Source: a virus (Duplodnaviria > Heunggongvirae > Uroviricota > Caudoviricetes). From it: a stretch of DNA of 16,015 nt. The stretch lies in the IMG/VR virus record IMGVR_UViG_2851955134_000007; one strand, given 5' to 3'. A program made the translations under genes and the position numbers. The notes beneath the pieces are model-generated. The model had not been told where the DNA came from. It ran no database searches and worked only from the letters and a program-made list of their open reading frames with translations. Every line of letters begins with the position of its first letter. The stretch's first letter is position 1. Positions 1 to 16,015 of this stretch are shown piece after piece.

Positions 1-1164
1 TTACGCCTTCTTTATATCCTCCATAATTCCAGAGTGGGACATATTTGGGACATTATCACCAAAAATGTCGTCTATTTTCCTCGCATGCTCTGTCAAATGA
101 TTAGGCGCAAGGTGAGCATACCTACGAACCATTTCTATGGACTCCCATCCGCCCATTTCCTGAAGCACTGATAATGGGACGCCTGACTGAATCAGCCAGC
201 TTGCCCAGGTGTGTCTGAGGTCATGGAAACGGAAATCTTCAATTCCTGCACGACGACAAGCTGATAGCCATGATGTCTTGCTGTCGATGCGCATCTTCCT
301 GACCGCAGGCGTTGATGTTCCATCTGCTCGCTTAGCCGCCTTGGTATGTACAAACACCCATTTGTGATGCTTGCCTATTTGATCACGCAACACTTTACAG
401 GCGGTATCGTTCAGCGCCACACCAATGGCGCGGTTTGATTTGCTCTCTTCTGGATTCACCCAGGCAACTCGTCGCTGCATGTCGATTTGTTGCCATTCCA
501 GATTTATGATGTTCGACTTTCTCAGACCAGTTGCCAGCGCAAACTTGACGACAGATTTCAGTGGTTCGGGGCACTCATCAATAAGGCGTTTTGCTTCCTC
601 CTTTTCCAGCCATCTGACTCGCTTGTTTCTGACCGCTGGTATCTTGATGACAGGCGCTTTTTCCAGCCACTTCCAGTCGCGTTCTGCAGCACGGAGAATG
701 GCCTTTATCATGGCAAGATGCTTTGCCTTTGTCTGAGTTGATACTGGCTTTGGTTCATAAACAGGCGGTTCTTTACCTTTCCTGATGGCGGCCTGAACTT
801 TCTGTTTCCATATTTCTTTCGTCTTTCTGTTATGCATTCTGCTTACAGCAGAGTAAATCTTTGCCTCCGAGATATCTTTAAGCCTTATACCCTCAAAATG
901 TTCAAGCCAGAACTCAATCCGGCTTTTATCTGAATCGAGAGATTTTTTATCAGCTTTTTCCTCAAGCCATCTTAGGCAGGCCTCTTCAAAAGTGACATCA
1001 GGTAAATCCCCTAGCTTTTCTACTCGCCAGAGTTCTGCTTTTCGCTTGTCGTGCAACTCCTGAGCTTGCCGCTTGTCCTTTGTGCCAAGAGATTCCTTAA
1101 TTCGTTTCCCGCCCGGGAGCGAATACGAGGCATACCATATTTTATTTCTGCGGAAGAGTGACAT
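1..1164 (-). CDS. int: Tyrosine-type phage integrase, 387 aa, lambdoid (phage 21 / DLP12 IntD-like)
   Basis: Complete ORF with GAGG Shine-Dalgarno upstream of the ATG at 1164. C-terminal catalytic motifs [10 protein letters not shown] and VRRYAHL (catalytic Tyr). N-terminal arm-binding region resembles lambdoid integrases as recalled. Stop codon sits at window positions 1-3. Confidence 0.9.
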
Positions 1165-1391
1165 TTTCTTTCCTCTGTTATGCCATCACCCGCGCTCACC
1201 TGGACAGTATGCAGCGGAGACTGAAGCGCCGCAATGCAGGCTTGCCGTGTTGTGAGGTAAGGAGATTTTGGCTTGGTTGGATCTTTACGTGTTGCCTGTA
1301 GGCGGCCTGTTCGTATCCAGTTGGTGGCGGTTGGTCTGGATATCTTAAGAAACTGACAGGCCTCATCGAGTGTGAGGCTGTATGATTCCAT
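1020..1391 (-). CDS. xis: Excisionase-like HTH protein (AlpA/Xis family); 3-prime end uncertain
   Basis: ATG at 1391 preceded by GAGG at 5 nt spacing. N-terminal HTH-like segment [24 protein letters not shown]. The ORF runs 145 nt into int, which is unusually long, so the C-terminal extension may not be real. Confidence 0.55.
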
Positions 1392-1641
1392 GGTTACCTC
1401 TGCTTTTTGAACGCATGTCACGTAACTTCTTAATGTGTTCTGCCGTTTCGATCTCTTCTGCTATCCGATCTGCATCAGCTTTATTCACAGGTTCAAAGTC
1501 ATGATTAAAGCGGAACATGCTGGCGATACATGTTCTGCCTTTTCGGATGTAGTGAACTTTGTTGTGGGTAGAACGCAGGATTTTGCAGGGAGTGCCGTGG
1601 TGGTCGACGTACCAGGTGTTAGGCAAAATGATTCTGAACAT
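1363..1641 (-). CDS. Hypothetical prophage early-left protein, 92 aa
   Basis: ORF with good RBS (GAGGTG about 6 nt upstream of the ATG at 1641); overlaps the xis start by 29 nt. No family recognised. Confidence 0.5.
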   Translation of the reverse strand: MFRIILPNTWYVDHHGTPCKILRSTHNKVHYIRKGRTCIASMFRFNHDFEPVNKADADRIAEEIETAEHIKKLRDMRSKSRGNHGIIQPHTR

Positions 1642-1688
1642 TTTTACACCTCAGTTGGACGATGTTGAAATTTGCTGCTTTGAGGCCA

Positions 1689-1907
1689 TCACAATCCCCA
1701 TTGTTTGTTCTTAAGTTCGATCTCCTCCTGGCAGCTTGCACAAGTCCGACAACCCTGAACGGCCAGGCGTCTTCGTTCATCTATGGGATCGCCACACTCA
1801 CAACAATGAGTGGCAGATATAACCTGGTGGTTCAGACGACGCATTTTTATTGCTGTATTGCGCTGTAATTCTTCGATTTCTGATGCTGAATCAATGATGT
1901 CTGCCAT
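1689..1907 (-). CDS. Small zinc-ribbon protein, TraR/DksA-like C4 type, 72 aa
   Basis: Two CxxC pairs (C-C-E-C and C-R-T-C, about 14 residues apart) in a 72 aa ORF, as in phage TraR/DksA-family proteins. Confidence 0.6.
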   Translation of the reverse strand: MADIIDSASEIEELQRNTAIKMRRLNHQVISATHCCECGDPIDERRRLAVQGCRTCASCQEEIELKNKQWGL

Positions 1908-1957
1908 CTTCCATTAATCCCTGAATTGTTGGTTAATACGCTTGAGGGTGAATGCGA

Positions 1958-1985
1958 ATAATAAAAAAGGAGCCTGTAGCTCCCT
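1958..1985 (-). terminator. Intrinsic terminator candidate for leftward transcription
   Basis: Minus-strand hairpin GGAGC-loop-GCTCC (1969-1983) followed by a T run (plus-strand A run 1963-1968). Lies between the 71 aa ORF stop and the zinc-ribbon gene start. Confidence 0.45.
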
Positions 1986-2005
1986 GATGATTTTGCTTTT
2001 CATGT

Positions 2006-2221
2006 TCATCGCTCCTTAAAGACGCCGTTTAACATGCCGATCGCCAGGCTTAAATGAGTCGGTGTGAATCCCATCAGCGTTACCGTTTCGCGGTGCTTCT
2101 TCAGTACGCTACGGCAAATGTCATCGACGTTTTTATCCGGAAACTGCTGTCTGGCTTTTTTGATTTCAGAATTAGCCTGACGGGCTATGCTGCGAAGGGC
2201 GTTTTCCTGCTGAGGTGTCAT
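2006..2221 (-). CDS. Hypothetical protein, 71 aa (MTPQQENALRSIARQ...)
   Basis: Start chosen at the ATG at 2221, which overlaps the stop of an upstream 27 aa ORF (ATGA). The 104 aa extension in the ORF track has no RBS support. Confidence 0.45.
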   Translation of the reverse strand: MTPQQENALRSIARQANSEIKKARQQFPDKNVDDICRSVLKKHRETVTLMGFTPTHLSLAIGMLNGVFKER

Positions 2222-2301
2222 TGAACAAGTCCCATGTCGGCAAGCATAAGCACACAGAATATGAAGCCCGCTGCCAGAAAAATGCATTCCGTGGTTGTCA
2301 T
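2218..2301 (-). CDS. Putative small hydrophobic peptide, 27 aa (MTTTECIFLAAGFIFCVLMLADMGLVQ)
   Basis: Below the ORF-track size cutoff; found by reading the strand. GGAGG about 4 nt upstream of the ATG. Hydrophobic core long enough for one transmembrane helix. Stop overlaps the start of the 71 aa ORF. Confidence 0.3.
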   Translation of the reverse strand: MTTTECIFLAAGFIFCVLMLADMGLVQ

Positions 2302-2369
2302 GCAGCCTCCCGACGGGCAAGAATCCTTGAGCCGAACGCCATCAACTCTCCACGATCAACGGTCGTAAA

Positions 2370-2993
2370 GTGGCAGTGTGTACGGGGGTACAGCAGGTAG
2401 CGCAGATCATCAACGGTGTGTTCAGCCAGTTACTGGCAACTTTCCCGGCGAGCCTGGCTAACCGTGACCAGAACGAAGTGAACGAAATCCGTCGCCAGTG
2501 GGTTCTGGCTTTTCGGGAAAACGGGATCACCACGATGGAACAGGTTAACGCAGGAATGCGCGTAGCCCGTCGGCAGAATCGACCATTTCTGCCATCACCC
2601 GGGCAGTTTGTTGCATGGTGCCGGGAAGAAGCATCCGTTATCGCCGGACTGCCAAACGTCAGCGAGCTGGTTGATATGGTTTACGAGTATTGCCGGAAGC
2701 GAGGCCTGTATCCGGATGCGGAGTCTTATCCGTGGAAATCAAACGCGCACTACTGGCTGGTTACCAACCTGTATCAGAACATGCGGGCCAATGCGCTTAC
2801 TGATGCGGAATTACGCCGTAAGGCCGCAGATGAGCTTGTCCATATGACTGCGAGAATTAACCGTGGTGAGGCGATCCCTGAACCAGTAAAACAACTTCCT
2901 GTCATGGGCGGTAGACCTCTAAATCGTGCACAGGCTCTGGCGAAGATCTCAGAAATCAAAGCTAAGTTCGGACTAAAAGGAGCAAGTGTATGA
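2370..2993 (+). pseudogene. P: Replication protein P, C-terminal fragment (about 200 aa); N-terminus deleted
   Basis: From about 2385 (VQQVAQIINGVFSQLLATFPASLANRDQNEVNEIRRQWVLAFRENG...) the translation matches the C-terminal part of lambda P as recalled. Upstream sequence is unrelated and the only in-frame start is a GTG without RBS. Confidence 0.85.
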
Positions 2994-3280
2994 CGGGCAA
3001 AGAGGCAATTATTCATTACCTGGGGACGCATAATAGCTTCTGTGCGCCGGACGTTGCCGCGCTAACAGGCGCAACAGTAACCAGCATAAATCAGGCCGCG
3101 GCTAAAATGGCACGGGCAGGTCTTCTGGTTATCGAAGGTAAGGTCTGGCGAACGGTGTATTACCGGTTTGCTACTAGGGAAGAACGGGAAGGAAAGATGA
3201 GCACGAACCTGATTTTTAAGGAGTGTCGCCAGAGTGCCGCGATGAAACGGGTATTGGCGGTATATGGAGTTAAAAGATGA
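2990..3280 (+). CDS. ren: Ren protein, 96 aa
   Basis: MTGKEAIIHYLGTHNSFCAPDVAALTGATVTS... matches lambda Ren as recalled. ATG overlaps the P stop (ATGA). Confidence 0.85.
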   Translation: MTGKEAIIHYLGTHNSFCAPDVAALTGATVTSINQAAAKMARAGLLVIEGKVWRTVYYRFATREEREGKMSTNLIFKECRQSAAMKRVLAVYGVKR

Positions 3281-3305
3281 CCATCTACATTACTGAGCTA
3301 ATAAC

Positions 3306-3337
3306 AGGCCTGCTGGTAATCGCAGGCCTTTTTATTT
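3306..3337 (+). terminator. Rho-independent terminator, tR2-like
   Basis: Stem AGGCCTGC (3306-3313) / GCAGGCCT (3322-3329) with 8-nt loop, followed by TTTTTATTT. Same position (between ren and ninB) as lambda tR2. Confidence 0.7.
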
Positions 3338-3353
3338 GGGGGAGAGGGAAGTC

Positions 3354-3794
3354 ATGAAAAAACTAACCTTTGAAATTCGATCTCCAGCACATCAGCAAAA
3401 CGCTATTCACGCAGTACAGCAAATCCTTCCAGACCCAACCAAACCAATCGTAGTAACCATTCAGGAACGCAACCGCAGCTTAGACCAAAACAGGAAGCTA
3501 TGGGCCTGCTTAGGTGACGTCTCTCGTCAGGTTGAATGGCATGGTCGCTGGCTGGATGCAGAAAGCTGGAAGTGTGTGTTTACCGCAGCATTAAAGCAGC
3601 AGGATGTTGTTCCTAACCTTGCCGGGAATGGCTTTGTGGTAATAGGCCAGTCAACCAGCAGGATGCGTGTAGGCGAATTTGCGGAGCTATTAGAGCTTAT
3701 ACAGGCATTCGGTACAGAGCGTGGCGTTAAGTGGTCAGACGAAGCGAGACTGGCTCTGGAGTGGAAAGCGAGATGGGGAGATCGGGCTGCATGA
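3354..3794 (+). CDS. ninB: NinB (recombination mediator, Orf family), 146 aa
   Basis: MKKLTFEIRSPAHQQNAIHAVQQILPDPTKPIVVTIQERNRSLDQNRKLW... recognised as lambda NinB. GGGAGAGGGAAG RBS upstream. Confidence 0.9.
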   Translation: MKKLTFEIRSPAHQQNAIHAVQQILPDPTKPIVVTIQERNRSLDQNRKLWACLGDVSRQVEWHGRWLDAESWKCVFTAALKQQDVVPNLAGNGFVVIGQSTSRMRVGEFAELLELIQAFGTERGVKWSDEARLALEWKARWGDRAA

Positions 3795-4318
3795 CTATCA
3801 AATCAAATACGCCAGCACACGACAAGGACTGCTGGCAAACGCCGCTTTGGCTTTTTGATGCACTGGATATTGAGTTTGGATTCTGGCTGGATTCGGCAGC
3901 GAGCGACAAAAATGCTCTGTGTGCTCACTGGCTAACTGAGGCCGACGACGCGCTCAATTCTGAGTGGGTAAGCCACGGTGCAATCTGGAATAACCCACCG
4001 TACAGCAATATCAGGCCGTGGGTGGAAAAAGCCGCTGAGCAGTGCATACAACAGCGACAGACGGTAGTTATGCTTGTGCCAGAGGATATGTCAGTCGGAT
4101 GGTTCAGCAAGGCTCTGGAGAGTGTCGACGAAGTTCGCATTATCACTGATGGACGGATTAATTTTATCGAACCATCGACAGGGTTGGAGAAGAAGGGAAA
4201 CAGCAAAGGCTCCATGCTGCTGATTTGGCGACCGTTCATCAGTCCTCGACGGATGTTTACTACCGTATCCAAAGCGGCATTGATGGCGATCGGGCAGGGC
4301 GTCAGGAGGGCGGCATGA
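3791..4318 (+). CDS. Orphan DNA N6-adenine methyltransferase (phage Dam-like), about 175 aa
   Basis: [13 protein letters not shown] motif and the catalytic NPPY tetrapeptide (AIWNNPPYS). ATG overlaps the ninB stop (ATGA). No restriction endonuclease gene adjacent. Confidence 0.8.
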
Positions 4319-4491
4319 GGCGACAGCGACGAAGTTTCACCGACATCATCTGCGAAAACTGCAAATACCTTCCAACGAAACGCTCCAGAAATAAACGCAA
4401 GCCAATCCCAAAAGAATCTGACGTAAAAACCTTCAATTACACAGCTCACCTGTGGGATATCCGGTGGCTAAGATATCGTGCGAGGAAATGA
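4315..4491 (+). CDS. ninE: NinE, 58 aa
   Basis: [58 protein letters not shown] matches lambdoid NinE as recalled. GGAGGG RBS; ATG overlaps the methyltransferase stop. Confidence 0.8.
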
Positions 4492-4493
4492 CA

Positions 4494-4835
4494 ATGGATT
4501 ATTCACAGTTAAGTGATTTTGAAATTAACAGAATGGTAGGAGACATAATTTTTAAAGGCCTTTGGGCAAGTAAACCGGAAACATCAGGGAATAACATCAA
4601 CAAATGGTATTACGGAAATGCTGATACAACTTTTGAGCCATTAAATCATTTGCCTGACTACTGCAATGATCCGAGCGCTTCATGGCCGATTATTGAGAAA
4701 TACAGGATTTCTATCTTAGACCAGTTAACTGAATGGTGTGTGGATGCAAAAGGCGTAAGCCCAATATTTGATACCAGACCTCTCCGCGCCGCCATGATTG
4801 TCTTTCTCCTGATGCAGGAGGCCAATAATGCTTAG
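4494..4835 (+). CDS. Hypothetical nin-region protein, 113 aa ([22 protein letters not shown]...)
   Basis: ORF directly after ninE. Start taken at the second ATG (4494), 8 nt after GAGG; an alternative ATG at 4488 overlaps the ninE stop. No family recognised. Confidence 0.55.
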
Positions 4836-5022
4836 CCCATCTCAATCCCTTCAATACCTGAAAGGAAGCATAGAGCGGGCTTCAATGAGCACAGAGTGGA
4901 TTCTATCTAGGTTTAGCGCATACAGAAGATTGCCGGTAAAGGGCATGCCAAGCAAGTCGATGCTGCATATGCAAAAGAATGCGCGCTGGAAGGTATGGCG
5001 AAAACACAGGTTATGTGGCTGA
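4828..5022 (+). CDS. Hypothetical small basic protein, 64 aa
   Basis: GGAGG 6 nt upstream of the ATG; start overlaps the stop of the preceding ORF. No motif recognised. Confidence 0.4.
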
Positions 5023-6199: not shown

Positions 6200-7160
6200 T
6201 TAGAACTGATACACCAGACCTACAGCGACGATGTCGTCGGTATCAATACCAGCTGTTTTGGTAAACTTACTATCGTCAATTAAGTTGATTTTGTAATCAA
6301 CAAAAGTGGACATGTTTTTATTAAAGTAGTAAGTAGCACCGACATCGACATACTTGACTAAGTCTCGGTCACCATGAACACCAAGGTCTTTACCTTTTGA
6401 CTGAAGGTAAGCAACAGATGGTCGCAGACCGAAGTCAAACTGATATTGTGCTACTGCTTCAAAGTTTTGTGCTTTGTTTGCAATATGGTTATTACCAAAA
6501 ACGGTCATATTCTGAGTTTCAGAATATGTGGTAGCCAGATAGATATTGTTCGCATCATATTTCAGGCCTGCAGCCCATACTTCCGCATTTTTGCCGGAGG
6601 CATTGAATTTGCTCTTACCATAGGCGACCTGACCGTCAGTGCGATCTGATTTAGCATAGGTTGCACCCACGCCGAATCCTTCATACTCATAAGTAGTGGA
6701 GAAACCGAAACCATCACCATTGGCTTCAGTTACGTCAGTGCGGTCATTTTTACCCTGATACTGAGCAGCAAAGTTCAGGCCATCGACCAGACCAAAGAAG
6801 TCGTTGTTACGATAGGTTGCAACACCAGTGGTGCGACCAGTCATGAACACATCTGTTTGGGTCCAGGTATCGCCACCGAATTCTGGCAGAACGTCAGTCC
6901 ACGCACCGATGTCGTATGCTACACCGTAGTTACGGCCGTAATCGATTGAGCCGTAGTCACCGAATTTCAGGCCTGCAAATGCAAGACGGGTTTTGTCTTT
7001 GGAGGAACCTTGAGATTCAGCGCGGTTGCCTTTGAATTCATATTCCCACTGACCGAAACCAGTCAGTTGATCGTTGATTTGGGTTTCACCTTTGAAGCCA
7101 AGACGGGCATAAGTAGTATCACCATCATCTGCATCGTTAGATGAAAAGTAGTGCTTGGCA
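6200..7160 (-). pseudogene. nmpC: Porin NmpC (OmpC/OmpD family), 3-prime portion from codon 44 to stop, cut off by IS10
   Basis: Translation ...[42 protein letters not shown]... to C-terminal ...VGLVYQF (terminal Phe typical of outer-membrane beta-barrels). The MRGSLSA start in the ORF track is read-through from the IS10 end, not a real start. Confidence 0.9.
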
Positions 7161-7173
7161 CTGAGAGATCCCC

Positions 7174-8382
7174 TCATAATTTCCCCAAAACGTAACCATG
7201 TGTGAATAGATTTTGAGTAAGCAGGGTTGCAGCCACGAGTGAGTCTTCCCTTGTTATTGTGTAGCCAGAATGCCGCAAAACTTCCATGCCTAAGCGAACT
7301 GTTGAGAGTACGTTTCGATTTCTGACTGTGTTAGCCTGGAAGTGCTTGTCCCAACCTTGTTTCTGAGCATGAACGCCCGCAAGCCAACATGTTAGTTGAA
7401 GCATCAGGGCGATTAGCAGCATGATATCAAAACGCTCTGAGCTGCTCGTTCGGCTATGGCGTAGGCCTAGTCCGTAGGCAGGACTTTTCAAGTCTCGGAA
7501 GGTTTCTTCAATCTGCATTCGCTTCGAATAGATATTAACAAGTTGTTTGGGTGTTCGAATTTCAACAGGTAAGTTAGTTGCTAGAATCCATGGCTCCTTT
7601 GCCGACGCTGAGTAGATTTTAGGTGACGGGTGGTGACAATGAGTCCGTGTCGAGCGCTGATTTTTTCGGCCTTTAGAGCGAGATTTATACAATAGAATTT
7701 GGCATGAGATTGGATTGCTTTTAGTCAGCCTCTTATAGCCTAAAGTCTTTGAGTGACTAGATGACATATCATGTAAGTTGCTGATAGGTTTCCAGTTTTC
7801 CGCTCCTAGGTCTGCATATTGTACTTTTCCTCTTACTCGACTTAACCAGTACCAACCCAGCTTCTCAACGGATTTATACCATGGCACTTTAAAGCCAGCA
7901 TCACTGACAATGAGCGGTGTGGTGTTACTCGGTAGAATGCTCGCAAGGTCGGCTAGAAATTGGTCATGAGCTTTCTTTGAACATTGCTCTGAAAGCGGGA
8001 ACGCTTTCTCATAAAGAGTAACAGAACGACCGTGTAGTGCGACTGAAGCTCGCAATACCATAAGCCGTTTTTGCTCACGGATATCAGACCAGTCAACAAG
8101 TACAATGGGCATCGTATTGCCCGAACAGATAAAGCTAGCATGCCAACGGTATACAGCGAGTCGCTCTTTGTGGAGGTGACGATTACCTAACAATCGGTCG
8201 ATTCGTTTGATGTTATGTTTTGTTCTCGCTTTGGTTGGCAGGTTACGGCCAAGTTCGGTAAGAGTGAGAGTTTTACAGTCAAGTAAGGCGTGGCAAGCCA
8301 ACGTTAAGCTGTTGAGTCGTTTTAAGTGTAATTCGGGGCAGAATTGGTAAAGAGAGTCGTGTAAAATATCGAGTTCGCACAT
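7174..8382 (-). CDS. tnp: IS10 transposase, 402 aa
   Basis: [71 protein letters not shown]... recognised as IS10/Tn10 transposase. Start 108 bp from the outside end, as in IS10. Confidence 0.95.
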
Positions 8383-8443
8383 TTTGTTGTCTGATTATTG
8401 ATTTTTGGCGAAACCATTTGATCATATGACAAGATGTGTATCT
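8375..8443 (+). ncRNA. IS10 RNA-OUT antisense RNA (position by analogy with canonical IS10)
   Basis: Region antisense to the transposase 5-prime end; sequence TCGCACATTTTGTTGTCTGATTATTGATTTTTGGCGAAACCATTTGATCATATGACAAG resembles RNA-OUT as recalled and contains the Dam GATC site. Exact ends not determined from sequence. Confidence 0.45.
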
Positions 8444-8489
8444 ACCTTAACTTAATGATTTTGATAAAAATCATTAGGGGATTCATCAG

Positions 8490-9921: not shown

Positions 9922-10379
9922 ACAGAGTAACCGCGATTATCTCCGCTCTGGTTATCTGCATCATCGTCTGCCTGTCATGGGCTGTTAATCATTACCGTGA
10001 TAACGCCATTACCTACAAAGCCCAGCGCGACAAAAATGCCAGAGAACTGAAGCTGGCGAACGCGGCAATTACTGACATGCAGATGCGCCAGCGTGATGTT
10101 GCTGCACTGGATGAAAAATACACGAAGGAGTTAGCTAATGCGAAAGCTGAAAATGATGCTCTGCGTGATGATGTTGCCGCTGGTCGTCGTCGGTTGCACA
10201 TCAAAGCAGTCTGTCAGTCAGTGCGTGAAGCCACCACCGCCTCCGGCGTGGATAATGCAGCCTCCCCCCGACTGGCAGACACCGCTGAACGGGATTATTT
10301 CACCCTCAGAGAGAGGCTGATCACTATGCAAAAACAACTGGAAGGAACCCAGAAGTATATTAATGAGCAGTGCAGATAG
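9918..10379 (+). CDS. rzpD: Rz inner-membrane spanin, about 153 aa
   Basis: N-terminal TM helix ([21 protein letters not shown]) then coiled-coil periplasmic region. ATG overlaps the endolysin stop (ATGA). Confidence 0.85.
10138..10320 (+). CDS. rzoD: Rz1 outer-membrane lipoprotein spanin, 60 aa, embedded in Rz in the +1 frame
   Basis: [24 protein letters not shown]... with lipobox LVVVGC and proline-rich region [24 protein letters not shown] 7 nt upstream. Confidence 0.85.
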
Positions 10380-10410
10380 AGCTGCCCATATCGATGGGCA
10401 ACTCATGCAA

Positions 10411-10704
10411 TTATTGTGAGCAATACACACGCGCTTCCAGCGGAGTATAAATGCCTAAAGTAATAAAACCGAGCAATCCATTTACGAATGTTTGCTGGGT
10501 TTCTGTTTTAACAACATTTTCTGCGCCGCCACAAATTTTGGCTGCATCAACAGTTTTCTCCTGTCCAATTCCCGAAACGAAGAAGTGATGGGTGATGGTT
10601 TCCTTTGGTGTTACTGCTGTCGGTTTGTTTCCAACAGTAAACGTCTGTTGAGCACATCCTGTAATAAGCATTGCCAGAGCGGCAGAAAACAACATTTTTT
10701 TCAT
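10411..10704 (-). CDS. borD: Bor lipoprotein (serum-resistance-associated), 97 aa
   Basis: MKKMLFSAALAMLITGCAQQTFTVGNKPTAVTPKETITHHFFVSGIGQEK... with lipobox LITGC. Recognised as lambda Bor. Start at internal Met17 of the ORF-track ORF. Confidence 0.85.
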   Translation of the reverse strand: MKKMLFSAALAMLITGCAQQTFTVGNKPTAVTPKETITHHFFVSGIGQEKTVDAAKICGGAENVVKTETQQTFVNGLLGFITLGIYTPLEARVYCSQ

Positions 10705-11063
10705 CTTATTATCCTGCATTGTTAAAAACGGCAGAATCCTATGTGACAACAATTAAACGATAGTTAAATGGATTGATGAAAATTAAAACTATATAGGTGG
10801 ATGCTCAGCCTATTGGAGGAGGGGGGCACTCAGAATCCTGTGGAATGAAATAAACCGCTCTTTCTGTCCATTACCCTTTTAGCTGCGCTGTATCGTCGCC
10901 GTATTCCCGCATTAACCATGACCGTAGCCCGACGGGGAATTCCTTCTGCGTGAGTGTGCGGGAATAATCAAAAACGATGCACACCGGGTTTTACTGTGCT
11001 GACAGACGCAGGGTTACCCTCATAGTCGCTTTTCCGGTGCGATGGTGGAAGAAACCGGGATGT

Positions 11064-11419: not shown

Positions 11420-11640
11420 CATTTTGCGGGTCCTTTCCGGCGATCCGACAGGTTACGGGGCGGCGACCTCGCGGGTTTTCGCTATTTATGAAAATTTTCC
11501 GGTTTAAGGCATTTCCGTTCTTCTTCGTCGTAACTTAATGTTTTTATTTAAAATACCCCCTGAAAAGAAAGGAAACGACAGGTGCTGAAAACGAGCTTTT
11601 GGGCCTCTGTCGTTTCCTTTCTCTGTTTTTGGCCGTGGAA
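11420..11640 (+). other. cos: cos site: cosQ, cosN (12-nt cohesive end GGGCGGCGACCT at 11458-11469) and cosB with terminase-binding repeats
   Basis: Sequence ...CGGGTCCTTTCCGGCGATCCGACAGGTTACG|GGGCGGCGACCTCGCGGGTTTTCGCTATTTATGAAAATTTTCCGGTTTAAGGC... matches the joined right and left ends of phage lambda as recalled. R-element-like repeats AAAGGAAACGACAG (about 11569-11582) and CTGTCGTTTCCTTTCT (about 11608-11623). Confidence 0.85.
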
Positions 11641-11646
11641 TGAACA

Positions 11647-12192
11647 ATGGAAGTCAACAAAAAGCAGCTGGCTGACATTTTCGGTGCGAGTATCCGTACC
11701 ATTCAGAACTGGCAGGAACAGGGAATGCCCGTTCTGCGAGGCGGTGGCAAGGGTAATGAGGTGCTTTATGACTCTGCCGCCGTTATAAGATGGTATGCCG
11801 AAAGGGATGCTGAAATTGAGAACGAAAAGCTGCGCCGGGAAGTTGAAGAACTGCGGCAGGCCAGCGAGACAGATCTCCAGCCAGGGGCTATTGAGTACGA
11901 ACGCCATCGACTTACGCGTGCGCAGGCCGACGCACAGGAGCTGAAAAATGCCAGAGACTCCGCTGAAGTGGTGGAAACCGCATTCTGTACTTTCGTGCTG
12001 TCGCGGATCGCAGGTGAAATTGCCAGTATTCTCGACGGGATCCCCCTGTCGGTGCAGCGGCGTTTTCCGGAACTGGAAAACCGACATGTTGATTTCCTGA
12101 AACGGGATATCATCAAAGCCATGAACAAAGCAGCCGCGCTGGATGAACTGATACCGGGGTTGCTGAGTGAATATATCGAACAGTCAGGTTAA
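11647..12192 (+). CDS. nohD: Terminase small subunit Nu1, 181 aa
   Basis: MEVNKKQLADIFGASIRTIQNWQEQGMPVLRGGGKGNEVLYDSAAVIRWYAERD... near-identical to lambda Nu1 as recalled. Confidence 0.9.
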   Translation: MEVNKKQLADIFGASIRTIQNWQEQGMPVLRGGGKGNEVLYDSAAVIRWYAERDAEIENEKLRREVEELRQASETDLQPGAIEYERHRLTRAQADAQELKNARDSAEVVETAFCTFVLSRIAGEIASILDGIPLSVQRRFPELENRHVDFLKRDIIKAMNKAAALDELIPGLLSEYIEQSG

Positions 12193-12378
12193 CAGGCTGC
12201 GGCATTTTGTCCGCGCCGGGCTTCGCTCACTGTTCAGGCCGGAGCCACAGACCGCCGTTGAATGGGCGGATGCTAATTACTATCTCCCGAAAGAATCCGC
12301 ATACCAGGAAGGGCGCTGGGAAACACTGCCCTTTCAGCGGGCCATCATGAATGCGATGGGCAGCGACTATAACTGTTA
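12167..12378 (+). pseudogene. A: Terminase large subunit A, N-terminal approx 66 codons only
   Basis: MNISNSQVNRLRHFVRAGLRSLFRPEPQTAVEWADANYYLPKESAYQEGRWETLPFQRAIMNAMGSDY matches the lambda gpA N-terminus; similarity ends after GSDY at about 12376-12380. GTG start overlapping the Nu1 3-prime end, as in lambda. Confidence 0.8.
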
Positions 12379-13295
12379 TTAATGAAAATCCGACAGCACA
12401 AGGATATCAGGCAATTGCTGTAAACACGAATGATGCTTACACCTGCCCGGCAGGTTCTTATACGACGATATCGTGTCTGACGAAAAGTGATAATTCCCGG
12501 TGTCGTGCAAGGTTCGGAAAAATGTCTGATAATGGTGCGTTTGTTTTTCATTCAGATGCAGTTCTGGATCCTGTTACGGGAAATGTTGTTCATGGAAATA
12601 ATGTGACGGTGACGGCAGAAAGAGTCGGTGAATGGTGGTTGTTTACCGCCACTCTTTTTGCAGATGCGGAAATGATAATCAGCTCAAGATTTGAAATCCT
12701 GGCGATGCCTGGAATCAGTATTATCCCCAATGGCTCTACGTTAGATATTGCGATGCCTCAGGCGGAGATTGGGTCGTACAGGACGTCATTTATCATTACT
12801 GAAGGGGCTCCTGGCACTCGCTCCAGCGACATGGTGACAATACCTGTAAGAAACAATATTCACCGATTACCATTCAGTGCTCTTGTTGAAGTTAATAAAA
12901 ACTGGGATATCCCTCCCAGCAAATCACCATTAATCTTTAATGTTAAAGATTATCAGGAAAATGGTCTGTTCACGCATGGATTCCGTGGTAATAATTTCTC
13001 TGATGCCGGTTCTCCTTTTATTTCTATGGGAGGGTGTAATAAATATGTGGCAACAACCCAGAGGAAAATCATTTCAGGCTTCCGTTGTGGCGCTGATGGA
13101 GATGTTCAGGCCGTATGTAATGGTGAATTATCTGTTGCGGCAAAAACAACATGGACTTCAATTGTTCCACGGGCAGTATTGCGAATTGGAGGGCAGGGCA
13201 CTAATGGGGAGTATCATCTTTTTGGTCATATCCGTAATCTGCGTATCTGGCATAAAGAATTAACTGATGCGCAAATGGGGGAGAGTATTAAATGA
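12379..13295 (+). pseudogene. C-terminal approx 305 codons of a receptor-binding / lectin-like (LamG-type jelly-roll) protein, probable tail-fibre remnant fused to the A fragment
   Basis: Frame of ORF 12351-13295. No native start: the ORF ATG is an out-of-frame codon inside the A fragment. C-terminal segment LRIGGQGTNGEYHLFGHIRNLRIWHKELTDAQM resembles the final strands of concanavalin-A-like LamG domains. Domain assignment is from motif recall only. Confidence 0.45.
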
Positions 13296-13573
13296 AAGAT
13301 TTAACACTCAAATTTGCAGACAGGGCCGACTTTTCGGCCTTTATGGAGAGTATTGGCTATTATGATGACGAGTCGATGCAGGATGATATTCTTATTGACG
13401 TGATAGGTAACGTGTACAAAGAAACCGGAGAACTGACTGAAGATGGCGAACCGGTATGTGTTAAGGAAGACGGATATTTTGTAAACGTGCGCATCATTAA
13501 TGATGTAAAAAAATCGTCAATATTCGATAAATACGCGGTTGTTGTTGAGCATCAACTTCGTGGCTGGATGTGA
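13292..13573 (+). CDS. Hypothetical acidic protein, 93 aa
   Basis: ATG overlaps the stop of the upstream fragment (ATGA). Rich in D/E, no TM segment or recognised motif. Confidence 0.5.
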   Translation: MKDLTLKFADRADFSAFMESIGYYDDESMQDDILIDVIGNVYKETGELTEDGEPVCVKEDGYFVNVRIINDVKKSSIFDKYAVVVEHQLRGWM

Positions 13574-13582
13574 GGGAGACAA

Positions 13583-14251
13583 ATGGCTACATCGACAGTA
13601 ATTCCAGGAGATATCACCACGCTAAAGGGAGATGTCAGTAAAACTAAGGAAGATATTTCCTCAATTAACGGAAAAGTATCAACGCTTCAGACTGATATGA
13701 CCAGTGCAAAGCAGGATATCAGCACCAGATACACAAAAACTGAAGTTGATAATAAGCTGAAAAACAAACTGGAAGTGAACGATCTGGAAAGCGGTCGTTA
13801 TGGTGGAGATTTTTACCCGTTGACTGGCCGTGAAGCGTTTTATATGTGGGGATTGGGCACGACTACAGCGGCGGCAAACCTTTATCTTAATCCTGACCCT
13901 GCAATTTCGTCTGTACTGCGGTCAACATCGTCTATTCGCTATAAACATTCAGTAGAGACGATAGATTCAGAGCACGCCGATCTCATTTTCAGGATGCGCC
14001 CTGTGTGGTACAGGTCGCAATGCGAAAATGACAGGCGTGACTGGGGATTCTACGGATTGATTGCCGAGGAAGTAGGAGAAATTGCCCCTCAGTTTGTACA
14101 CTGGCGACCAGCTAACGAAGATGATGCTCCTGAAGCTATTTCCAGCAATGGCCTTGTTGCCGAAGGTGTAATGTACGAACGTCTGGTTGTTCCACTGATT
14201 CACCATATCCAGAAGCTGACTGAAAGAGTTGATGAACTTGAGTCAGATTAA
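13583..14251 (+). CDS. Coiled-coil protein with C-terminal intramolecular-chaperone-like domain (peptidase S74-like), 222 aa
   Basis: GAGGGAG RBS 4-5 nt upstream. N-terminal heptad-like segment (DISSINGKVSTLQTDMTSAKQDIS). C-terminal region SSIRYKHSVETIDSEHADLIFRMRPVWYRSQ...GFYGLIAEEVGEIAPQFV...EGVMYERLVVPLIHHIQKLTERVDELE resembles the self-cleaving chaperone domain of tail fibres/endosialidases, from motif recall. Confidence 0.55.
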   Translation: MATSTVIPGDITTLKGDVSKTKEDISSINGKVSTLQTDMTSAKQDISTRYTKTEVDNKLKNKLEVNDLESGRYGGDFYPLTGREAFYMWGLGTTTAAANLYLNPDPAISSVLRSTSSIRYKHSVETIDSEHADLIFRMRPVWYRSQCENDRRDWGFYGLIAEEVGEIAPQFVHWRPANEDDAPEAISSNGLVAEGVMYERLVVPLIHHIQKLTERVDELESD

Positions 14252-14256
14252 AGTTG

Positions 14257-14286
14257 TTATCCGTTTCCCGAAGCGATATCGGATAA
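14257..14286 (+). promoter_or_regulatory. Inverted repeat TTATCCG-N16-CGGATAA just upstream of the RBS of the 97 aa ORF
   Basis: Perfect 7-bp arms at 14257-14263 and 14280-14286; the spacer contains the palindrome CGATATCG. Right arm abuts the AAGGAGG Shine-Dalgarno (14286-14292). Confidence 0.35.
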
Positions 14287-14296
14287 AGGAGGAGTA

Positions 14297-14590
14297 ATGG
14301 ATATAACACCTTTCCTTCATGCGCTTTGTGCTGTGGCTGCGCAGCTACTGATTGGTCTTTTTACCGGGAACTGGGCTTACGGGGCGATAGCCGGTTGTAC
14401 GTTCTTCATTGCGCGTGAACACACCCAGGCAGAATATCGCTGGATCGAAATGTTCGGGCATGGCAAGCGAATGAATATGCCGTGGTGGGGCGGTTTTGAT
14501 ACACGTGCATGGGATGTGGCAAGCCTGATGGATTTTGCTGTGCCGGTGGTGGCGTGTCTGCTGGTCTGGCTGTTGGTTAATCGTGGGTGA
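14297..14590 (+). CDS. Hypothetical small membrane protein, 97 aa, predicted 2-3 TM helices
   Basis: Strong RBS AAGGAGG 4 nt before the ATG. Hydrophobic segments FLHALCAVAAQLLIGLFTGNWAYGAIAGCTFFIA and ASLMDFAVPVVACLLVWLLV. Confidence 0.5.
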   Translation: MDITPFLHALCAVAAQLLIGLFTGNWAYGAIAGCTFFIAREHTQAEYRWIEMFGHGKRMNMPWWGGFDTRAWDVASLMDFAVPVVACLLVWLLVNRG

Positions 14591-15265
14591 AAAAAGGTGA
14601 GCTGTATATGCAACGGAGGAAGAAAACTCGTTGCTGGAAGCCTGGAAAAAGTATCGGGTGCTGCTAAACCGTGTGGACACTTCCGTAGCACCAGATATCG
14701 AGTGGCTTATTCAACCATAATAAACAGTATGTATATCATAGGTTATTAATTGTGAGTTTTTTCGGTGTGTTATTTGTTTGTTTGATGTTATGCTTTTGCG
14801 CCCCAAAAGGTTGTTTAGATGTATTTTATCAATTGATTTTCAATGTCGTTTAATAAAGAAAAATTAAGCAAGCTGGATGTTGGTTTTTTGTTAATTGAAT
14901 GGTTCTAATAATGTTTTTTTACTGTTGTTGAATGTGACTTGATAAGAAATGCAAGTAAAAATGATACTCTTTTTATTTTAAATTCAAACGGTTGACATAT
15001 ATATAGCAAGAGGTTTCAGGTGCGTTGTAGTGAGTTTATGTTAATAAAAAGTATAGTAAGCGTTGAAAAATGTAACTTTGAAATACGTTAGAATAAAAAA
15101 CAATATACATATAATAATTTAATCTTAAATGAAATTTATTAAAATTTGCAAACTATAATTTTGTGTATAAAAATATAAATGCACATCATCCTGATTATGA
15201 TTGTGTATTTAATTGGTTGTTATTTGACTGCTATCAACTTGTTTTAATTTTATGATAGGTGCAAG

Positions 15266-16015
15266 ATGGATTATGTTTGCTCCGTAGTTTTCATCTGTCA
15301 ATCATTTGATTTAATTATAAACAGGAGAGTTATCTCGTTCAAAAAAAATTCATTGTTTATTGTAAGCGACAAAATTAGAAGGGAGTTACCAGTATGCCCC
15401 TCTAAACTAAGAATTGTTGATATAGATAAGAAAACATGTTTATCCTTTTTTATCGACGTGAATAATGAGCTGCCTGGCAAATTTACTCTTGATAAGAATG
15501 GCTATATTGCTGAAGAGGAACCTCCATTATCGCTTGTTTTTTCTCTGTTTGAAGGGATTAAAATAGCAGACTCACACTCCCTTTGGTTAAAAGAAAGACT
15601 ATGTATATCCTTACTTGCCATGTTCAAAAAACGCGAAAGTGTAAATTCATTTATACTAACAAATATAAATACATTTACCTGTAAAATTACTGGAATAATC
15701 AGTTTTAATATTGAGCGGCAATGGCATTTAAAAGATATTGCGGAATTAATTTATACGAGTGAAAGTTTAATAAAAAAAAGATTAAGGGATGAAGGAACGT
15801 CATTTACTGAAATATTGAGAGATACTAGGATGAGGTATGCAAAAAAACTCATAACTTCAAACTCTTATTCTATCAATGTCGTAGCCCAGAAATGTGGCTA
15901 TAACAGTACTTCATATTTCATATGTGCATTTAAAGATTATTATGGTGTCACGCCATCTCATTATTTTGAGAAAATAATCGGCGTCACAGATGGAATAAAC
16001 AAAACAATTGACTGA
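15266..16015 (+). CDS. appY: AraC-family transcriptional activator AppY, 249 aa
   Basis: [56 protein letters not shown]... with C-terminal AraC-type HTH ([28 protein letters not shown]). Recognised as E. coli AppY. Very AT-rich gene and upstream region. Confidence 0.9.

Follow-up and report, generated by a model that had tools for sequence, protein, structure and literature searches.

The 16,015-nt stretch of DNA analysed here (hereafter the window) is a copy of the cryptic lambdoid prophage DLP12, of the lineage that includes O6:H16 strains, and its late operon carries an internal deletion. At the deletion junction, located at positions 12369/12370, codon 68 of the terminase large-subunit gene A (lambda nt 913) is joined with a 1-nt overlap to codon 474 of stf, the prophage's own side tail-fibre gene. 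The initial annotation had placed a deletion scar between 12360 and 12385, and the junction falls within that interval. We consider it very probable that the scar arose by ordinary microhomology-mediated decay of the prophage. The allele is specific to its lineage, the cryptic element itself has long been known, and so has the process of decay by deletion that formed it.

The identity of the prophage is given by its ends and by its gene order. Positions 1–1259 match the intD/xisD region of K-12 DLP12 at 99.7% identity (blastn), and the integrase gene intD, annotated at 1–1164 on the minus strand, is itself 99.7% identical to its K-12 counterpart. The tRNA-Arg gene argU lies directly upstream of intD in genomes with an identical locus, and intD fixes the window as the argU-integrated prophage locus. 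Between intD at one end and appY at the other, the window contains, in this order, rusA, quuD, a porin gene, essD-rrrD-rzpD, ylcI, cos and nohD; the DLP12 gene order rusA-ylcG-quuD-porin-essD-rrrD-rzpD-...-ylcI-cos-nohD...appY was recovered both by collinear blastn alignment to K-12 and in the annotation of a 100% identical locus. The best match to the window as a whole, TUM9803, covers 92% of it. The right-hand flank, appY (15266–16015, plus strand), is common to the DLP12 variants examined except VG48B2 and PSJ-12, whose loci have other genes downstream of tfa instead.

DLP12 varies as much in its left arm as in its right, since the early region consists of other DNA in FG92-1 (window 2391–4932) and has for the most part been replaced in REL606 and K-12. 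Strain 99-3165 is missing some 3.3 kb of this region (window 1660–4986), including a gene for a phage N6-adenine methyltransferase (3731–4318). The DLP12 porin gene (nmpC/ompC-like, 6200–7177 plus an upstream part) is split in the window by an IS10-like element at 7161–8487, which encodes an IS4-family transposase of 402 aa on the minus strand (7174–8382). Strain 99-3165 does not have this insertion, and 11 nt at the site (99-3165 L001, 9889–9899) align on either side of it. In the area of 10411–10752 (minus strand) and the adjacent bor/iss-type gene, the lipoprotein gene located between rzpD and ylcI is annotated as iss in the relatives from this lineage and as borD in K-12; iss stands for increased serum survival. 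The window is unlike K-12 at 10759–11046, where K-12 has ybcV-ybcW.

On the left side of the junction, cos and nohD are intact. The cos region occupies 11458–11646 (plus strand; lambda nt 1 corresponds to window 11458 by blastn) and is followed on the same strand by nohD (11647–12192), which encodes the whole of a Nu1-type terminase small subunit (181 aa). Residues 1–181 of lambda Nu1 find a full-length match in nohD at 97.8% identity (tblastn), its product matches phrog_57 (terminase small subunit) with E = 3.7e-76, and the identical locus in the database is annotated nohD. Nucleotide similarity to the lambda nu1/A region extends from 11458 to 12369 (lambda nt 1–913) at 98.2% identity (blastn), and residues 1–68 of lambda gpA correspond to 12167–12370 with 100% identity (tblastn). 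The abrupt end of gpA similarity after ...NAMGSDY that had been noticed from the sequence is therefore real: by blastn and tblastn it falls at residue 68, window position 12369. Alignment to phage lambda and to K-12 DLP12 gave no continuation of gpA homology beyond the junction, and tblastn found no match to gpA beyond residue 68 in any frame of the window.

After ...NAMGSDY the gpA frame passes through three out-of-frame codons (N-C-Y) and stops at 12380–12382, so that the gpA remnant as a whole occupies 12167–12382 on the plus strand. A full-length lambda-type gpA has about 641 aa, with an N-terminal ATPase centre and a C-terminal nuclease, and the window holds residues 1–68 only. Terminase large-subunit PHROGs match these residues alone, no Pfam or NCBIfam match was found for the stub, and RefSeq records it as a pseudogene without a C-terminus. 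The Walker A segment of gpA, which we take to start at about residue 76, would lie past the break. The stub is dead and ends ahead of the ATPase centre.

On the right side of the junction, the sequence is that of stf. Positions 12369–14575 match the stf region of TUM1586 at 99.0% identity, and 12369–13292 encode residues 474–781 of a 781-aa Stf with 100% protein identity to FG92-1 and REL606, the relatives in which the complete downstream protein was found when intact versions of the gene were sought. The remnant (12369–13295, plus strand) thus comprises 308 codons and the stop, in a frame shifted by +1 relative to that of gpA; this agrees well with the initial description of about 305 C-terminal codons of another gene in another frame. 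That description had considered the downstream gene unrelated, which is not the case: it is the side tail-fibre gene of the same prophage, and in intact relatives it comes after J and lom, some 20 kb downstream of A. Full-length stf follows J and lom in TUM1586 and PhiR49_1 and a remnant of J in REL606 and FG92-1, and all four have the same small genes 3' of stf as the window. In TUM1586 the full gene is annotated as a 'prophage tail fiber N-terminal domain-containing protein'.

The parental sequences share one base at the junction, the A at 12369, as seen in the comparison of the window with lambda, K-12 and TUM1586 and with FG92-1, which contains both flanks. Both flanks match their counterparts at E = 0, and among 5426 complete genomes there are 30, including several O6:H16 strains, that contain the 161-bp junction sequence without a mismatch (100% identity). 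Since the junction is shared by 30 independent complete genomes, an assembly artefact or a chance similarity is excluded. Two other routes to the junction were rejected. A repeat search of the parental interval in FG92-1 found no direct repeat bridging both breakpoints that was longer than the 1-nt overlap, which argues against homologous recombination between repeats. Site-specific recombination was discarded on inspection by eye, the stf breakpoint showing no convincing resemblance to the gix/cix/hix half-sites of Din invertases, dif or the target preferences of IS elements.

The full-length protein is a side tail fibre of the lambda Stf type, but its tip is another one. It begins with the Pfam domain phage_tail_N (PF08400, residues 3–132, E = 1.9e-66), continues with an Ala/Ser-rich repeat shaft and the NCBIfam domain GTA_spike_fiber (residues 435–626), and finishes with a C-terminal part of about 150 residues. 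Lambda Stf shares the phage_tail_N domain and the position of the gene after J and lom; however, its tip is lambda/T4 gp37-like, whereas that of the window-type Stf is of the GTA_spike_fiber type with a LamG-like part. Moreover, lambda stf is directly followed by tfa, whereas three extra small genes come after stf of the window type.

The fragment in the window covers positions 484–793 of the 793 positions of PHROG 1419 ('tail protein') and is devoid of the PF08400 'prophage tail fibre N-terminal' anchoring domain; the window therefore has a fragment of a Stf family member and not a member. The GTA_spike_fiber profile (NF048003) scores 66.8 bits over profile positions 1–181 with full-length Stf, but 43.8 bits with the fragment (cut-off 36), over positions 43–181 of 182 only. 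The loss of profile positions 1–42 places the break inside a domain and not at a domain boundary. The fragment consequently has neither the domain for attachment to the virion nor the Ala/Ser-rich shaft, and its first receptor-binding-type domain is short of the initial 40 or so residues. As for the C-terminus, PF13385 matches residues 252–308 with 16.7 bits (E = 0.0085), which is below the gathering threshold of 27.6, and two homologues have a precomputed match to the same family. The predicted fold of the fragment is a pair of lectin-type beta-sandwiches, and a beta-sandwich of the LamG/LNS/pentraxin type is present in the model. The Stf C-terminus is thus modelled as a laminin-G/concanavalin-A-like sandwich, and the term 'lectin-like' given to the protein in the initial annotation holds at the level of predicted fold.

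The same annotation had proposed that the junction removes the rest of gpA together with all head and tail genes. This is correct for the rest of gpA, for the head genes and for the tail shaft, none of whose genes are left in the window, but the distal fibre module remains, consisting of the stf 3' end, orf93, a fibre gene, orf97 and a tfa fragment, all on the plus strand. The lambda morphogenesis proteins detectable in the window by tblastn are Nu1, gpA residues 1–68 and Tfa residues 156–191 only. The gene orf93 (13292–13573; phrog_1361, E = 2.4e-46) is conserved, with no assigned function, and comes after stf in intact relatives, the gene order around it being the same in TUM1586, PhiR49_1, FG92-1 and REL606. 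It is followed by a short tail-fibre gene (13583–14251) with an endosialidase-chaperone (Peptidase_S74) domain (PF13884, E = 4.5e-6). Its product has 222 aa in the window versus 234 aa in relatives, owing to a 1-nt deletion near 14247 (alignment to 99-3165), which indicates further decay within the lineage. The conserved gene orf97 (14297–14590; phrog_1443, E = 2.8e-58) also belongs to the module. The last element is a 3' fragment of tfa (14610–14720), the equivalent of K-12 tfaX; lambda Tfa residues 156–191 correspond to 14610–14717 (tblastn), and from 14610 to 16015 the window is 99.4% identical to the tfaX-appY region of K-12.

Two direct copies of the tfa 3' fragment, about 84% alike, flank ybcY in PhiR49_1 (L008, 5934–7055) and in K-12 (L002, 17979–19105). 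The window has one copy (14575–14720) and no ybcY. This arrangement is as expected if the two tfa copies had recombined with each other and ybcY had been lost in the process, which would represent a second scar in the fibre module.

Comparison with the K-12 form of DLP12 (nohD-aaaD-tfaD-ybcY-tfaX-appY) supports the claim that its junction differs from that of the window. The two prophages share the argU/intD site, the order from rusA-quuD through essD-rrrD-rzpD-ylcI-cos-nohD and the tfaX 3' end/appY flank, at 98–99% identity, and in both a gpA stub is joined through a short microhomology to a gene of the fibre module. However, K-12 retains 105 nt more of A, up to lambda nt 1018, joined to tfa at nt 22119 with an overlap of 3 nt (TAT), and the junction is followed by tfaD, ybcY, tfaX and appY, with tfaD-ybcY in the place of the window's stf remnant-orf93-fibre-orf97. 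As each form has DNA that is missing in the other, neither derives from the other by deletion. K-12 DLP12 is known to share about 3.35 kb with lambda at 98% identity across R/Rz-cos-nu1-A, and its nu1 and lysis genes function once recombined into lambda (PMC3945230).

Further relatives are the REL606-type prophage of E. coli B/C and that of FG92-1. Both occupy the same locus, carry an stf allele that is 100% identical over residues 474–781, and share with the window the orf93-fibre-orf97-tfa 3' fragment-appY block at 99.9% identity. They differ from it in having stf whole and in their own junctions, as nohD (lambda nt 699) is joined to J (nt 16135) in REL606, whereas in FG92-1 it is A (nt 2363) that is joined to J, at the 3' end of the latter. 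This deletion in FG92-1 (L014, 10052–12460) gave rise to an open in-frame fusion of 802 aa, made of gpA residues 1 to approximately 551 and the J C-terminus, which RefSeq calls an intact 'terminase gpA endonuclease subunit'.

The undeleted state is represented by PhiR49_1 (PV340568), an isolated lambdoid phage whose Nu1/A region is 99% identical to that of the window. Unlike the window, its 45.3-kb genome is complete, with the layout J-lom-stf-orf93-fibre-orf97-tfa 3' fragment-ybcY-tfa 3' fragment-ompT and an argU attachment sequence; its stf DNA matches the window only in the last 40 codons or so. PhiR49_1 thus shows, in a living phage, what the ancestor was like before the deletion. Its ompT (omptin) gene is located at L008 8986–9939 and the argU attachment sequence at 10359–10408. 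Because PhiR49_1 carries ompT, the ompT gene found beside DLP12 in K-12 is plausibly cargo of a phage type that is still active.

At least 10 junction types exist at the DLP12 locus; we give their left ends in lambda coordinates and their counts, where available, among the 5426 complete genomes. The leftmost in lambda is that of REL606 and other B/C strains (699, in nohD, to J nt 16135; 64 genomes). It is followed by PSJ-12 (about 880, to the stf 3' end), the window type (913, to stf codon 474; the 30 genomes mentioned above), PSS-08-1 (915, to tfa codon 8; three genomes), VG48B2 (955, to a point 2 nt before the tfa start), LR-45 (957, to the last 42 codons of stf), K-12 MG1655 (1018, to tfa nt 22119; 366 genomes), PSJ-16 (1452, to tfa) and FG92-1 (2363, to the 3' end of J; one genome). 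In AST205 (one genome) the left end is upstream of cos and the right end is again stf codon 474. Microhomologies of 1–5 nt were present at the junctions inspected in the window, K-12, PSS-08-1, VG48B2, LR-45, PSJ-16 and AST205; none was resolved on inspection of the PSJ-12 junction. Derivation from the window type can be ruled out for AST205, whose flanks are 100% REL606-type, and for PSS-08-1, which holds the 5' part of tfa and other DNA missing from the window. The independent decay of this prophage in different lineages, suggested earlier from the K-12 comparison, is thus well supported. Our literature search found nothing specific on the diversity of DLP12 junctions, the window junction or phage PhiR49_1.

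These observations suggest the following scenario. The ancestor would have been a complete phage with the late operon cos-nu1-A-(head and tail genes)-J-lom-stf-orf93-fibre gene-orf97-tfa, and an inducible relative with that layout, the argU attachment site and ompT is still extant in PhiR49_1. Illegitimate, microhomology-mediated recombination at a single A would then have removed the segment from A codon 68 to stf codon 474, and the same genes would have been lost via other junctions in other lineages. Both this mechanism and the order of events are our inference; the junction, its two parental sequences, its distribution among genomes and the other junction types were observed directly.

The loss could have been a one-step event of about 20 kb or the outcome of two nested deletions. 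In the latter case, the first deletion would have fused A nt 2363 with the J 3' end and left stf intact, which is the state of FG92-1, and a further deletion would then have produced the scar. Indeed, the window is equivalent to FG92-1 minus 3,683 bp (L014, 10255–13937), with 99.95% identity on either side, and for this reason the scar may be the second of two deletions. The extra DNA in FG92-1 comprises the rest of A to nt 2363, the J remnant and the first 60% of stf, counted from its 5' end. Among the same-locus relatives compared, FG92-1 is also the closest in the left flank (99.95% versus 99.86% for REL606). However, the FG92-1 junction is present in just one of the 5426 genomes and could belong to an independent lineage, and a complete ancestor that lost about 20 kb at once would reach the same end state. 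We therefore give the two-step history somewhat less than an even chance. The 'single junction' of the initial annotation is accurate insofar as there is one junction, but it does not imply a single event, FG92-1 being a possible intermediate.

Whether one step or two, microhomology-mediated deletion leaves the choice of breakpoints to be considered. AST205 is 100% identical to the REL606-type DLP12 on both sides of its junction and unlike the window lineage; accordingly, its deletion, of 5,127 bp, is independent. Nevertheless, it ends in the same stf GATA/ATA as the window junction (AST205 L005, 6003–6010, versus window 12369–12372) and so reuses the right-hand breakpoint to the nucleotide. 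This breakpoint adjoins an 11-nt palindrome, ATAACTGTTAT. In addition, left ends pair 2 nt apart in the window type and PSS-08-1 (913/915) and in VG48B2 and LR-45 (955/957), and most junction microhomologies are AT-rich. Such coinciding ends are not predicted by a model of purely random breakage, and could reflect a sequence-directed break or a strand-slippage hotspot at the stf palindrome and at the Tyr68 codon of A. We regard such a hotspot as unlikely, as the set of junctions is small and was partly found with queries centred on these positions, the arms of the palindrome are just 5 nt long, no enzyme or motif is tied to the site, and chance, at the few-per-cent level, may account for the pattern. 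The clustering is in part due to ascertainment; the remainder may come from AT-rich microhomologies being preferred, from a hotspot or from chance.

A more general proposal is that DLP12 deletion ends recur on the same few nucleotides in independent lineages (the Tyr68 codon and nt 955–957 of A, and stf codon 474 beside the palindrome), either through hotspots or through selection for cos and the small terminase subunit. Many of the inspected left ends do lie just downstream of an intact cos-nohD, although these were partly found with queries centred there. To us this proposal seems a little more doubtful still than the hotspot by itself. If selection were at work, a functional cos and small terminase subunit would be kept in a prophage that is otherwise dead, for instance because incoming lambdoid phages could recombine with it or package it.

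The deletion also created an open reading frame of 314 aa (12351–13295, plus strand, from the ORF list, the sequence and the RefSeq annotation), which RefSeq labels as an intact CDS for a 'phage head spike fiber domain-containing protein'. The ORF opens with six codons (MRWAAT) that come from gpA DNA but are not in the gpA frame, and its stf codons are internal codons of the parental gene. We looked for a start or promoter of its own: no Shine-Dalgarno-like sequence is visible before 12351, and the promoter scan found no sigma-70-like site on the plus strand from 11423 to 14938. The downstream ORF therefore has neither a native start nor a predicted promoter, in line with the interpretation of the region as a scar. 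It might be argued that the ORF is nonetheless real and expressed, as a domesticated carbohydrate-binding protein kept by selection: PGAP calls it an intact CDS in the 30 genomes, it is unbroken, its predicted fold is that of two lectin-type beta-sandwiches, and the fragment starts at the same stf codon in two independent deletions, those of the window type and of AST205. However, the start codon in out-of-frame gpA DNA with no Shine-Dalgarno-like sequence, the lack of a promoter-like site and the break within the NF048003 domain, which deprives it of positions 1–42, all speak against this idea. AST205, furthermore, has no in-frame ATG upstream of its junction, and the frameshift in the adjacent fibre gene of the window points to continuing decay. 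Domestication is thus very improbable. The 314-aa ORF exists by accident, because an ATG in the gpA DNA happens to be in frame, the junction product is non-functional DNA and the scar has no function of its own. Judging from the sequence, the stf fragment is probably promoterless and unexpressed, although it could be transcribed by read-through, being downstream of the Q-dependent late promoter region.

The least credible alternative, with hardly any probability left to it, is the acquisition of stf-orf93-fibre-orf97 from another phage into an already truncated A, given that at the same locus FG92-1 and REL606 have this very stf allele in complete form (100% identical over residues 474–781), with flanks 99.9% identical and J sequence upstream of it, and that loss is far simpler than a gain of exactly the 3' 40% of stf.

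Decay by microhomology-mediated deletion thus remains the preferred explanation of the scar. Its significance is limited beyond annotation and strain history, breakpoint reuse being the sole aspect perhaps worth a wider study. For annotation, the RefSeq CDS of 314 aa at this position should be read as a chimeric stf remnant and not as an intact gene. For strain history, the junction is a simple lineage marker, carried by 30 of the 5426 complete genomes. The living phage PhiR49_1 and the partly decayed prophages of FG92-1 and REL606 are useful comparators for reconstructing the order of events. Together, the DLP12 variants offer a clean case of parallel prophage decay, dated by identity, in which at least 10 junctions remove the same genes at one locus.
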